DNA from: an uncultured Alphaproteobacteria bacterium
GTDB taxonomy: Bacteria; Pseudomonadota; Alphaproteobacteria; Rhizobiales; Xanthobacteraceae
DNA: 64,000 bases
Assembly (NCBI GenBank): GCA_963733575.1
Contig: CAVTDJ010000002.1
Coordinates: 1,235,171 to 1,299,170 of the forward strand
Reading direction: 5' to 3'
In this document: positions 40,850 through 43,033 of the stretch, one piece after another
How the letters are laid out: each line of letters begins with the position of its first letter
Position numbering within the stretch: position 1 is the stretch's first letter
Position numbers and translations under genes: made by a program
Notes under the pieces: generated by a model
What the model was told of the DNA's origin: nothing
What the model saw: only the letters and a program-made list of their open reading frames with translations
The model's database searches: none

Positions 40850-43033
40850 ATGGATGGCGGCCCCCTCAATACTACCTATCGGGTTGTGGAAGCGCTCCCC
40901 AAGGACGTCGGCCGTGGTCTCGCTCGCTTGGATCCGAAGGACATGGCCGAGCTCGGTGTCGAGATCGGTGACGTCATAGACGTCACTTCAACGCAGACGA
41001 CCGTGGCTCGCGTTATGCCGGCTCATGTCGAGCTGCGCGGCAAGCGCTCGATTCAGATTGACGGCATCTCGCGCGCCAACGCCGGCGCCAGTCTTGGCGG
41101 GCAGGTGAGCGTGCGCTTGACGGCGCCGAAGACGGCCCGCACGATCTTGTTGGCGCCGACCGATGCGCCGGCGCGCGCCGCACGCGGCCTCGAAGGTCGC
41201 TATCTGACCCGCCTGCTCGACGGCCTACCGATGGTCCCCGGCGACCGCGTTCGCGTCAATCCGTTCGGCACGCAGATGCGCAATTTCGTCGTGACGAAGG
41301 CAACGCCGCCGGGGCCCGTCATCGTCGCGCCTACGACCGTCATCACTTGTGAGGGCGGGTCCGCGCCGCGTCGAGAAGCGGTCACCTACGAGGATATCGG
41401 TGGACTGCACAAGGAGATGCGCCGCGTCCGCGAGATCATCGAACTCCCCCTCAAGTATCCCGAGGTCTTCGCGCATCTTGGCGTCGAGGCACCCAAGGGC
41501 GTCCTGCTCTACGGCCCGCCGGGCACCGGCAAGACTTTGATCGCGCGCGCCGTCGCCCACGAATCCAACGTTCATTTCATCCACATCAACGGCCCGGAAA
41601 TCATCGACAAGCTCTATGGGGCGAGCGAGGCCAATCTGCGCAAGATGTTCGAGGAGGCGGAAAAAAACGCGCCTTCCATCATCTTCATCGACGAGATCGA
41701 TGCCATCGCACCGAAGCGCGAGCAGATGGCGGGCGAGCGTCAGGTCGAGCGTCGCGTCGTCGCCCAGCTGCTATCCTTGATGGACGGTCTCGAAGCGCGC
41801 GGCCAGGTGGTCCTGATCGCCGCCACGAATCTTCCGAACTCGCTGGACCCGGCATTGCGCCGGCCCGGGCGTTTCGATCGGGAGATCGAGATCGGAATTC
41901 CGGACAAGGAGGGCCGACGCGAGGCACTGGAAATCCACAGCCGCGGGATGCCGCTGGCCGAGGCCGTCGACCTGGAGCGGATCGCCGGCATCACCCACGG
42001 ATTCGTCGGCGCCGACCTGGCTGCCCTATGCCGCGAAGCCGCCATGAGCGCGCTGCGACGGTTGATGCCGGACATCGATTTCAAGACCACCGAAATACCT
42101 TACGACAAGCTGGCTGCGCTCAAAGTCGAACGGACGGATTTCGAGGGAGCCCTGGCGGAAGTCGAGCCATCCGCTCTGCGCGAGGTCGCCACCGAGATCT
42201 CCGACATGCGCTGGGAGGACGTGGGCGGGTTGGACGAGGTGAAGCGGCTGCTGACCGAGGTCGTGCTGTGGCAACTGCGCTACGACACCCTCTTTCAACA
42301 GGCAGGGGTCCGTGCGCCCAAGGGCGTCCTTCTGCACGGCGCGCCGGGCACCGGCAAGACGCTTCTCGCCAAGGCGCTCGCCGGCGAAACCGAAGCGAAC
42401 TTCATCGCAGTGAAAGGTCCACAGCTGCTGAGCATGTGGATCGGCGAGTCGGAGCGAGGCGTGCGCGAGATGTTTCGCAAGGCGCGCCAGGCCGCTCCCT
42501 GCATCATCTTCTTCGACGAGATCGACGCGGTGGCGCCGCGCCGCGGTGGCGGCGGAGGCGGTCAGGTCACGGAGCGCGTGGTCGCGCAACTGCTTACTGA
42601 GCTCGACGGCATCGAGGATCTGAAGGGCGTGGTGGTGCTGGCGGCGACGAACCGCATGGACCGGTTGGATCCGGCCCTGCTGCGTCCGGGCCGGCTGGAG
42701 TTTCACATCGAGTTGCCGATGCCCGACGCAGCGGCGCGACGGGCAATCCTGCAAGTCCATCTCAAGCGCATGCCGCTGGGCAAGGACGTGAAGATCGACA
42801 CGCTGGTGCAGAGCACCGAAGGACTCGTGGGCGCCGATCTCGAAGGACTCTGCCGCCAGGCGGCGTTGTTCGCAATCCGTGAGGTGATCGAACCGGCCGC
42901 GACCAGGACTCCTCGCGCAAAGGAAGGCGCGGGGGCCAGCCATGCGGTGGAGCTGCTGCCCAAGCTGACAATCGCCAAACGGCATTTCGACCTGGCGCTC
43001 ACCGAGCGCGATGCCAACAGGAGCCGGCCATGA
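40850..43033 (+). CDS. Cdc48/VAT/p97-like AAA+ ATPase (N domain plus two AAA modules)
   Basis: 727 aa. The N-terminal double-psi-barrel-like region reads [37 protein letters not shown]1 has [15 protein letters not shown] and [15 protein letters not shown]2 has [15 protein letters not shown] and [14 protein letters not shown]. Confidence 0.88.

Follow-up and report, generated by a model that had tools for sequence, protein, structure and literature searches.

How the extremely hydrophobic GvpA stays soluble and enters the growing gas-filled shell, and what becomes of shells that have collapsed, are central questions in the biology of gas vesicles. Assembly is currently modelled on GvpN, GvpF/L and several small proteins of four model organisms, all of which lack this ATPase. 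In the 64,000-nucleotide stretch of bacterial DNA analyzed here (hereinafter, the window), a gvp cluster that runs from gvpA to gvpK on one strand encloses a gene for a double-ring AAA+ ATPase of the CDC48/VAT family (Table 1), which raises the question of what such an ATPase contributes to gas vesicles.

Domain architecture and genomic position of the ATPase

The earlier note on this DNA ascribed to the product of this gene (hereinafter, CDC48) a Cdc48-N-like domain and two complete AAA modules. Pfam searches agree: CDC48_N covers residues 11-89 (75.4 bits against a cutoff of 35.1) and CDC48_2 residues 115-169 (39.8 bits, cutoff 22.4), in addition to two AAA domains (PF00004, 1e-94) and two AAA_lid_3 domains. 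The ATPase motifs quoted in the note were all found, namely GPPGTGKT (residues 222-229), IIFIDEID (277-284), GAPGTGKT (497-504) and IIFFDEID (552-559). The protein scores 905.4 bits with the NCBIfam model TIGR01243 (“CDC48 family AAA ATPase”), above the curated cutoff of 802.65, and among solved relatives it aligns best with Thermoplasma VAT (5g4f) over query residues 10-685 (E 4.5e-209). In the AlphaFold2 monomer model (pLDDT 80), residues 8-167 are rich in beta structure; Foldseek searches with this model match full-length p97/Cdc48 chains (E ~1e-75, TM ~0.6), the eukaryotic p97/VCP/Cdc48 having the same fold and 44-47% identity over ~730 columns.

The next gene in the cluster encodes a GvpL-type protein with a C-terminal J domain (hereinafter, GvpL-J), in which Pfam detects GvpL_GvpF (residues 4-245, 182 bits) and DnaJ (residues 263-313, 33.5 bits against a cutoff of 27.8), the HPD motif of the latter being intact (VHPDV). 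The stop/start overlap at 43030 (ATGA) that had been claimed for the two genes is there in the sequence, which reads ...AGGAGCCGGCCATGAGC...: the ATG of GvpL-J occupies positions 43030-43032 and the TGA of CDC48 positions 43031-43033, a 4-nt overlap, with GGAG at 43020-43023, 6 nt 5′ of the ATG. From this overlap we infer translational coupling of CDC48 to GvpL-J. The scan of the window for promoters and terminators yielded nothing above chance; no terminator-like site was found between CDC48 and its flanking genes, and a terminator-like site at 46572-46587 lies beyond gvpK. By position, that is, inside the gvp operon, on the same strand and without an intervening terminator, CDC48 is an operational gas-vesicle accessory gene.

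Table 1. Features of the gvp cluster and of the CDC48 gene within it (positions in the window)
Feature	Position	Strand	Evidence
GvpA, 69 aa, first gene of the cluster	33705..33914	+	Pfam Gas_vesicle, 59.8 bits
GvpN, canonical gas-vesicle AAA+ protein, 352 aa	35545/35548..36603	+	TIGR02640, 373 bits (cutoff 267); Pfam AAA_5
GvpH-like small heat-shock protein (Hsp20/alpha-crystallin), 179 aa	36992..37531	+	Pfam HSP20, 23.2 bits (cutoff 20.8); weak GvpH match
Conserved 363-aa protein, invariant HEHxH motif, possible zinc peptidase	37534..38622	+	Weak Foldseek evidence
gvpF	38622-39419	+	Pfam
gvpG	39457-39717	+	Pfam
gvpO	39721-40125	+	Pfam
94-aa ORF without assigned family	40122-40406	+	
GvpJ-like gene, directly upstream of CDC48	40422-40772	+	Pfam
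CDC48/VAT-family double-ring AAA+ ATPase, 727 aa	40850..43033	+	Single ATG ORF; Pfam, TIGR01243, VAT 5g4f, Foldseek
N domain, residues 11-169: CDC48_N double-psi barrel and CDC48_2 beta-clam	40880..41356	+	Pfam
D1 AAA module, residues 176-455	41375..42214	+	Motif alignment
D2 AAA module, residues 456-685	42215..42904	+	Motif alignment
C-terminal tail, residues 686-727, ending ...ANRSRP, no HbYX motif	42905..43030	+	Motif alignment
Junction: AGGAG Shine-Dalgarno within the CDC48 3′ end and ATGA overlap	43019..43033	+	Sequence
GvpL-type protein with C-terminal J domain, 361 aa	43030..44115	+	Pfam GvpL_GvpF and DnaJ
Second GvpF/L paralogue	44112..44732	+	Pfam; best-match table; NJ leaf order
Small GvpA-family protein	44933-45187	+	Pfam
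GvpF/L	45184-45972	+	Pfam
GvpK, end of the cluster, start uncertain	ends 46367	+	Pfam

Conservation of the ATPase motifs and absence of the proteasome tail

CDC48 shares with VAT and archaeal Cdc48 the N-D1-D2 architecture, aromatic pore loops in both rings and all ATPase motifs, and differs from them in being bacterial and encoded in a gvp operon. In D1, these motifs comprise the Walker A K228, pore loop K254-L-Y-G257, Walker B D281/E282, sensor-1 N327 and the SRH arginines R338/R341; the counterparts in D2 are K503, M529-W-I-G532, D556/E557, N601 and the arginines R612/R615. Among the 76 clade members drawn from the best 80 of more than 558 relatives, the D1 Walker A Lys/Thr, Walker B D-E, sensor-1 T-N and the RPGRFDRE segment are unchanged throughout, and the pore-loop Tyr of D1 is kept in 76/76; in D2, the pore-loop aromatic residue (Y/W/F) and the Walker B DE are present in 76/76, and the arginines in 75-76/76. 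Taken over both rings, every ATPase motif is retained in 75-76 of the 76. The resulting pore loop 1 patterns of the clade, K-[F/L/Y]-Y-G in D1 and [K/M/R]-[Y/W/F]-[V/I]-G in D2, resemble those of the unfoldase VAT (KYYG and KWVG, respectively), the D1 loop being KLYG in the window protein and KFYG in most of the clade. The D2 loop of the window protein, MWIG, is close to that of p97; in D1, however, the pore-loop Tyr is kept, unlike p97, the D1 of which is not known to have such a Tyr. Also missing from CDC48 is the long acidic C-terminal tail of p97, and cofactors of the UBX/Ufd1-Npl4 type are not encoded near its gene.

A further difference lies in the extreme C-terminus. The archaeal relatives sampled possess the HbYX motif for proteasome docking (5/5 archaeal outgroup loci; tails HRMYV, HRMYA, RYAYV or VPYYR), whereas neither this motif nor the penultimate Tyr was found in any of the 76 clade members aligned (from the best 80 of more than 558 relatives), the window protein included. 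Therefore a role as a proteasome activator, after the manner of the archaeal proteasome-activating Cdc48/VAT, was ruled out. The best reading of the window gene is that it codes for an active, stand-alone hexameric unfoldase of the Cdc48/VAT type, with hexamer formation and unfoldase activity predicted from the sequence.

The mean identity of the N domains is 47% within the gvp clade vs 33% to the outgroup, and a search for signature residues specific to the clade returned only three positions, none of them usable; neither signature residues nor an unusually conserved N domain was kept as a mark of the clade. By these alignments, the CDC48s of the gvp clade differ little from other Cdc48s, and a gvp-specific binding surface is not evident.

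Linkage to gvp genes and phylogeny

The gene-neighborhood survey suggested in the earlier note was run on 80 loci, which are the top 80 of more than 558 relatives ordered by how closely they resemble the query; the in-clade set consists of 75 relatives from other species (species representatives) in approximately ten bacterial phyla. Within this sample of the best 80 relatives, gvp genes lie within 10 kb of CDC48 in 70 of the 75 in-clade loci, and at least two gvp families are present in 61; the linkage extends to annotated plasmids of Methylocella and Methylosinus. The commonest partners of CDC48 are a GvpH-like small heat-shock protein (sHsp) gene upstream and a GvpF/L gene downstream. Specifically, among the best 80 of more than 558 relatives, an Hsp20/GvpH-like gene is located directly 5′ of CDC48 (end no more than 300 nt upstream) in 44/70 loci, a GvpF/L gene directly 3′ (start no more than 300 nt downstream) in 50/71, and the complete sHsp-CDC48-GvpF/L triad in 34/67. 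In 37 loci of the same sample, the GvpF/L gene overlaps CDC48 or starts within 30 nt of it (overlaps of 4 nt in 11 loci and of 8 nt in 5), and the commonest best match of the genes directly 3′ of CDC48 in other loci (21/51) is not GvpL-J but the second GvpF/L paralogue of the window. The unit of three genes stays together though its position within the cluster varies. In-clade members outside gvp clusters are still preceded by an Hsp20 gene, and one of them (L019) by an Hsp70 gene as well.

Other chaperone genes are less regular companions. J-domain GvpL is encoded in only 17 of these best 80 loci, and the fusion is also found without CDC48 in Octadecabacter, for which reasons it was rejected as a defining partner. 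Hsp70 genes are present inside nine gvp-linked loci of the same sample, and in the loci L013 and L017 the Hsp70 gene lies directly 5′ of J-domain GvpL. The presence of GvpN in the window, which the earlier note had also reported, is upheld by a score above the family cutoff (Table 1). Unlike CDC48, this AAA+ protein of gvp clusters consists of a single AAA_5 (MoxR-like) module and has neither an N domain nor a second ring. Where the flank is long enough, GvpN accompanies CDC48 in almost every locus, and CDC48 is therefore not a substitute for it.

In one locus (L065), a single 977-aa ORF joins CDC48 to a complete GvpL_GvpF domain. No second CDC48-GvpF/L fusion was found among the 120 best matches to the junction and GvpF/L part of this ORF, and the nearest relatives of the latter part (79% identity) are separate 267-aa proteins; this potential Rosetta-stone fusion was set aside, since the genome is metagenome-assembled and a frameshift is the probable cause.

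In neighbor-joining (NJ) trees, the method used throughout, the gvp-linked CDC48s are all separated with 100/100 bootstrap support from a group that comprises archaeal Cdc48, VAT, Halobacterium cdc48d and the proteins of Rhizobium, Methylobacterium and Sphingomonas. Thus, the non-gvp CDC48s of these three bacterial genera lie, together with those of archaea, outside the gvp clade. The CDC48s of Methylocella and Methylosinus sort by cluster type rather than by host order. Given the linkage in 70/75 loci and a clade apart from the non-gvp Cdc48s, comparative genomics supports the reading, advanced before these comparisons, that gas vesicles have an AAA+ machine of their own besides GvpN and unlike it in mechanism.

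The genus Octadecabacter is gas-vacuolate. Octadecabacter arcticus 238 has the same cluster architecture as the window, including the sHsp and a GvpL-J orthologue (37% identity, J domain kept), without CDC48. In that design the ATPase is therefore probably not essential, and CDC48 is likely to have an enhancing role, not a core one.

A proposed AAA+ arm of a gas-vesicle chaperone system and alternative roles

Our leading explanation, which we judge about as likely as not, is that the unfoldase was taken into a gas-vesicle chaperone system to serve as its AAA+ arm. The GvpH-like sHsp would hold the aggregation-prone, hydrophobic shell proteins of the GvpA/J/S family, the GvpF/L paralogues would serve as client adaptors, the J domain of the window GvpL paralogue would recruit DnaK, and the Cdc48-like ring would pull the clients from off-pathway aggregates or holdase complexes toward the growing vesicle wall, the enlargement of which needs GvpN. 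GvpF has been shown to bind GvpA, and GvpL to bind GvpJ and GvpM, and when chaperones are missing, the hydrophobic A-J-M proteins form aggregates (PMC9501494). That the ring acts on these clients, and in assembly instead of removal, is predicted from gene content: co-expression with the structural genes fits assembly and is also compatible with removal of damaged or collapsed shells.

The logic of such a system would be that of the sHsp/Hsp70-J-protein/ClpB (Hsp104) disaggregase triad, Cdc48 standing in for ClpB, given that gvp clusters with CDC48 encode an Hsp20 holdase, a J domain (and Hsp70 in the nine loci mentioned above) and a double-ring AAA+ motor. This likeness would be a functional analogy of gene content, not homology: the J domain in the gvp cluster is fused to a GvpL protein, and the motor is a classical-clade Cdc48 rather than an Hsp100, with no M domain for docking of Hsp70. 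The Hsp100 architecture (ClpB/Clp N domain, coiled-coil M domain, AAA_2-type D2) was not detected by Pfam in CDC48, the only trace being a secondary AAA_2 match over D1; CDC48 is thus not a member of the Hsp100/ClpB family but may work like ClpB. As for the holdase, GvpH of haloarchaea is likewise an Hsp20-like accessory protein, and the CDC48-adjacent sHsp matches Pfam GvpH in several loci; in Halobacterium, however, the gvp cluster contains no such pairing of GvpH with a Cdc48 gene.

Disassembly or recycling, whereby a Cdc48-like segregase would extract GvpA-family subunits from collapsed or surplus shells and the sHsp and GvpF/L would catch them, is unlikely but carries some weight. Such an activity would permit lower buoyancy, or reuse or degradation of a very stable shell protein. 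Pulling subunits from stable assemblies is an established activity of Cdc48/p97, with which the intact pore loops and the missing proteasome tail of CDC48 agree, and the Octadecabacter architecture, which does without the ATPase, is more in keeping with maintenance than with building. The embedding of CDC48 in the structural operon and the overlap of its reading frame with an assembly-factor gene point the other way, suggesting production together with assembly factors, and a regulated pathway of gas-vesicle disassembly was not found in the gas-vesicle literature examined. Clusters of the window type also hold the conserved HExxH (HEHxH) protein, conceivably a peptidase; however, this protein is confined to that one cluster type (13 loci among the best 80 of more than 558 relatives), it has no sequence relative in the PDB and its best Foldseek match (E 0.05) is not significant, so that an obligatory protease partner is unsupported. 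It seems doubtful that the entire sHsp-Cdc48-GvpF/L unit, with J-domain GvpL and sometimes Hsp70, is a dedicated shell-dismantling machine extracting GvpA for reuse or degradation; if true, this would be the first enzymatic route known for taking gas vesicles apart, and would give buoyancy a natural “off switch”.

General stress proteostasis, with an sHsp-Cdc48 pair carried along or co-regulated with gvp that has no Gvp client in particular and might, for instance, ease the proteotoxic load of massive Gvp synthesis, is distinctly improbable. The sHsp-Cdc48 pair is also found in archaea and in non-gvp bacterial loci, so its biochemical activity would be generic, and clade-specific residues are few. 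In Halobacterium NRC-1, where the Hsp20 gene hsp5 lies directly 5′ of cdc48d (pNRC200; L087), the two genes are induced by heat shock 3.0- and 3.4-fold, respectively (PMC1971269), and heterologous gas-vesicle expression reportedly provokes proteotoxic stress (PMC12848028). This haloarchaeal pair differs from the gvp-linked bacterial ones in that 29 kb of plasmid separate it from the gvp cluster and its CDC48 belongs to the outgroup of the NJ tree. A pair without Gvp clients is difficult to reconcile with a linkage kept over approximately ten phyla, with reading frames that overlap GvpF/L, with the gvp-linked CDC48s forming one group apart from the non-gvp CDC48s of the same bacterial order, and with a CDC48 tree that tracks cluster type instead of host taxonomy.

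A regulator that unfolds a Gvp protein or a regulatory protein and so sets vesicle number rather than folding, as GvpD lowers GvpE in haloarchaea, is highly unlikely: although GvpD, described as a regulator that represses, is a precedent for a second, regulatory NTPase in gvp clusters (PMC9501494) and some CDC48-containing clusters hold sigma-54 activators and two-component genes, profile searches of the window showed no homologues of GvpD or GvpE, and the constant neighbors of CDC48 are chaperone-type and adaptor-type genes, not regulators.

Implications for gas-vesicle biogenesis

A full-text literature search for gas vesicles in combination with Cdc48-type ATPases or chaperones returned no paper describing this protein, the only co-mentions being unrelated haloarchaeal uses. 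The location of the closest CDC48 relatives in gvp clusters of approximately ten phyla, mostly with an sHsp gene on one side and GvpF/L genes on the other, suggests that gas-vesicle proteins have a chaperone module not described so far. Gas vesicles are employed as acoustic reporter genes, and failed assembly and proteotoxic stress restrict their expression in heterologous hosts (PMC10344784; PMC12848028). A 23.4-kb cluster of Desulfobacterium vacuolatum (FWXY01000008:1268-24724), from which E. coli forms vesicles at 30 °C (PMC10344784), probably includes the CDC48 gene. A CDC48 lineage that travels with gvp genes in so many phyla, accompanied by sHsp and J-domain genes and in some loci by Hsp70, suggests that many natural systems invest in a full ATP-driven chaperone or disaggregase arm, and provides a clear example of a bacterial Cdc48 whose cellular context is defined.

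A CDC48-family ATPase within a gas vesicle gene cluster

The ATPase for which the earlier note had claimed a double ring with a Cdc48-N-like domain and two AAA modules is indeed encoded by a single ORF, and Pfam recovers all of these parts (see the table). CDC48 scores 905 bits against the NCBIfam model TIGR01243, "CDC48 family AAA ATPase" (curated cutoff 803), and its top solved relative is VAT of Thermoplasma (5g4f, E 4.5e-209, residues 10-685), followed by human p97 and the plant and yeast Cdc48. The AlphaFold2 model (alignment of 28 sequences, pLDDT 80) matches full-length p97/Cdc48 chains with E about 1e-75 and TM about 0.6. 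CDC48 is therefore a member of the CDC48 family, with every testable defining feature present, and is only an analogue of ClpB. Its nearest relatives, at 94-96% identity, are encoded in Xanthobacteraceae metagenome-assembled genomes and in metagenome contigs, which makes this family the most probable source of the window. Two homologues are odd: one of the pair P0063 and P0117 has 1007 aa and three AAA modules, and the other has 970 aa and precomputed domains that include the AAA set and PF14890.

Features of the gvp cluster, domains of CDC48 and Hsp70 genes in related loci
Feature	Position	Strand	Remark
gvpA	33705-33914	+	
ORF	33933-34619	+	no assigned family
ORF	34787-35548	+	no assigned family
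gvpN	35545-36603	+	TIGR02640, over cutoff
ORF	36600-36947	+	115 aa
Small heat-shock protein (sHsp)	36992-37531	+	Hsp20/GvpH-like
HExxH protein	37534-38622	+	363 aa, HEHxH motif
gvpF	38622-39419	+	
gvpG	39457-39717	+	
gvpO	39721-40125	+	
ORF	40122-40406	+	94 aa
GvpJ-like gene	40422-40772	+	
CDC48	40850-43033	+	727 aa
GvpL-J	43030-44115	+	
Second GvpF/L	44112-44732	+	
Small GvpA-family gene	44933-45187	+	
Further GvpF/L	45184-45972	+	
gvpK	ends at 46367	+	
CDC48_N	CDC48 residues 11-89		Pfam
CDC48_2	CDC48 residues 115-169		Pfam
Two AAA and two AAA lid domains	CDC48		Pfam
Hsp70, locus L013	17059-18987		directly upstream of J-domain GvpL gene
Hsp70, locus L017	10629-12512		directly upstream of J-domain GvpL gene

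Every gene from 33705 to 46367 is on the + strand, the gaps are short, and the canonical GvpN is present in the same cluster, as the earlier note had stated. No terminator-like site was found between CDC48 and its flanking genes in a terminator scan that overall was not above chance. The reported overlap of CDC48 with GvpL-J is likewise real: the TGA (43031-43033) overlaps the ATG (43030-43032), with AGGAG 6 nt 5′ of the latter. GvpL-J itself is a GvpL/GvpF protein whose C-terminal J domain retains the HPD motif. One related locus (L065:9703-12636) has a 977-aa ORF in which a full CDC48 runs on into a full GvpL_GvpF domain. As no second case occurs among the 120 best database matches, this apparent fusion is probably not genuine but due to a frameshift in a metagenome-assembled genome.

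The 228-aa product of the ORF directly 3′ of gvpA has no Pfam or NCBIfam match; its family directly follows gvpA in 48 related loci, the GvpC position of model clusters. Just downstream of gvpK, two overlapping + strand ORFs (46863-47462 and 47435-48553) match the N- and C-terminal halves, respectively, of the Sulfatase domain and probably represent a single frameshift-split gene. A 548-aa TTG ORF (36979-38625, +) is an over-extended call that runs, in its 5′ portion, across the sHsp gene in a different frame; the conserved HExxH protein within it begins near 37534. The motif LLAHEHxHPLxE is invariant in 31 homologues of this protein, which lies between the sHsp gene and gvpF and belongs to a small family (133 proteins found, every one annotated "hypothetical") with no Pfam match. 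Its confident AlphaFold2 model (pLDDT 87) has no significant Foldseek match, the top ranks being nearly all HExxH zinc peptidases, and the protein may represent a new metallopeptidase family linked to gvp clusters. One 473-aa homologue (P0198) has a precomputed GvpL_GvpF domain, either through fusion to the adjoining gvpF or as a gene-calling artefact.

Genomic neighborhoods and phylogeny of CDC48

The gene-neighborhood survey proposed in the earlier note, with one genome per GTDB species, yielded more than 558 CDC48 relatives, of which the best 80 (53-94% identity) were searched, across all ORFs of their loci, with Gvp family profiles made from the window proteins. Five archaeal loci without gvp genes served as the outgroup, and counts refer to the other 75. 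At least one gvp family is present within the 10-kb flanks in 70 of these 75 loci, and at least two in 61. Where enough downstream sequence is available, a GvpF/L gene starts within 300 nt of the CDC48 stop in 50 of 71 loci; in 37 it overlaps CDC48 or lies at most 30 nt away, eleven having the 4-nt overlap of the window. An Hsp20/GvpH-like gene ends within 300 nt upstream of CDC48 in 44/70 loci and occurs anywhere in the locus in 65/75; the complete sHsp-CDC48-GvpF/L arrangement is found in 34/67.

The position of this unit varies: it stands in the middle of the cluster in Alphaproteobacteria and Chloroflexota, at its start in Acidobacteriota, many "Deltaproteobacteria" and Planctomycetota, and at its end on Methylocella and Methylosinus plasmids; in L075 and L076 it diverges from the other cluster genes. 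The best 80 include Pseudomonadota, Chloroflexota, Thermoleophilia, several Thermodesulfobacteriota orders, Planctomycetota, Acidobacteriota, Calditrichota, Bacillota, one Parachlamydiaceae MAG, Sumerlaeota and two methanogen MAGs with gvpA nearby. The hosts also include Prosthecomicrobium pneumaticum, Ancylobacter and Oscillochloris, whose genera are classically known to be gas-vacuolate. The gvp clusters of L075 (the Parachlamydiaceae MAG) and L076 (a Sumerlaeota MAG), with the CDC48 unit, look complete; the placement of the former in Chlamydiota is unexpected and could reflect a binning error. Genes for a sigma-54-dependent activator, a sensor protein and a response regulator lie ahead of the plasmid-borne clusters of Methylocella tundrae (L081) and Methylosinus sp. 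C49 (L084), the sensor being annotated "ATP-binding protein" in the former and "PAS domain-containing protein" in the latter. Both clusters end with GvpH(Hsp20)-hypothetical-CDC48, with no GvpF/L downstream.

In neighbor-joining trees, the only kind built, from a sample ranked by similarity to the window CDC48 and with a small outgroup, VAT together with the five non-gvp proteins from archaea separates from all other sampled CDC48s in 100/100 bootstraps. When Halobacterium cdc48d and the non-gvp CDC48s of Rhizobium, Methylobacterium and Sphingomonas plasmids are included, all of them fall on the outgroup side (100/100). Rhizobium and Methylobacterium share their order with the likely host of the window. 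The gvp-linked CDC48s of Methylocella and Methylosinus fall within the gvp group, apart from the alphaproteobacterial subclade of the window. The protein tree thus tracks cluster type rather than host, which indicates that CDC48 has been inherited and transferred jointly with the gvp cluster.

ATPase motifs

Across the 76 clade members, the Walker A Lys/Thr, Walker B Asp-Glu, sensor-1 and arginine pair of D1 are invariant, and Walker A, Walker B, sensor-1 and the arginine pair of D2 are invariant or nearly so. The pore loop 1 aromatic is kept in both rings (K-[F/L/Y]-Y-G in D1 and [K/M/R]-[Y/W/F]-[V/I]-G in D2), the window protein having KLYG and MWIG where VAT has KYYG and KWVG. All five archaeal outgroup proteins carry a C-terminal HbYX (HRMYV, HRMYA, RYAYV, VPYYR), which is absent from all 76 clade members (the window CDC48 ends in ANRSRP); CDC48 is accordingly not of the proteasome-activating archaeal type. 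Given the intact ATPase motifs and pore aromatics and the lack of HbYX, CDC48 looks like an active threading motor acting without a proteasome. Neither the three clade-specific residues nor N domain conservation (47% identity within the clade vs 33% to the outgroup, a moderate difference) allows a special recognition surface to be named.

Associated chaperones and clusters without CDC48

A J domain on a GvpL paralogue is detectable in 17/80 loci, and Hsp70 genes are located inside nine gvp-linked loci (L013, L017, L014, L015, L022, L025, L028, L067 and L077); their position in the first two suggests that some clusters supply their own Hsp70 partner for the J domain. L019, L021, L053 and L079, in-clade loci that lack gvp genes, still have an Hsp20 gene directly ahead of CDC48, and L019 also has Hsp70. 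The same pairing occurs in archaeal outgroup loci and on Halobacterium pNRC200; hsp5 and cdc48d of Halobacterium NRC-1 are heat-shock induced 3.0- and 3.4-fold (PMC1971269). By this distribution, the sHsp-Cdc48 pair is an old proteostasis unit, one lineage of which became attached to gas vesicle clusters.

Plasmid pOA238_160 of Octadecabacter arcticus 238 (L086, 9858-19048) has the gene order of the window minus CDC48: gvpA, two ORFs, gvpN, Hsp20, F, G, O, J, J-domain GvpL, F/L, small Gvp, F/L and K. Its gvpJ and gvpL-J (360 aa with a DnaJ domain) overlap by 4 nt, and the window CDC48 occupies precisely this junction, suggesting that CDC48 is an optional addition or was lost in the Octadecabacter lineage. 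The J-domain fusion to GvpL is independent of CDC48. Plasmid gvp clusters of Nostoc and Spartinivicinus are likewise missing from the listed CDC48 matches.

A putative chaperone arm for gas vesicles

The best-supported reading is a chaperone arm dedicated to gas vesicles, in which the sHsp would act as holdase, GvpF/L proteins as adaptors, the J domain would recruit Hsp70 and the Cdc48-type unfoldase would extract clients, GvpN still being the shell-enlargement factor. GvpF binds GvpA, GvpL binds GvpJ and GvpM, and A-J-M proteins aggregate without chaperones (PMC9501494), all of which fits such an arm. Extraction of subunits from collapsed shells fits the same anatomy and the sequence evidence equally well. 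A general stress role alone is less likely because the linkage to gvp genes is conserved and frame-overlapping and the gvp-linked lineage is separate. On the same grounds, the earlier proposal of a second AAA+ machine dedicated to gas vesicles is supported, with the qualification that the ATPase is probably optional, given the CDC48-free L086.

Even within annotated gvp clusters, genomes label this protein "CDC48 family AAA ATPase", reviews name GvpN as the sole ATPase, and a full-text literature search of incomplete coverage found no paper tying a Cdc48/VCP/p97-type ATPase to gas vesicles. Allowing for a possible earlier description elsewhere, CDC48 would represent a known type of motor placed in a module that is new, conserved and specific to one organelle.
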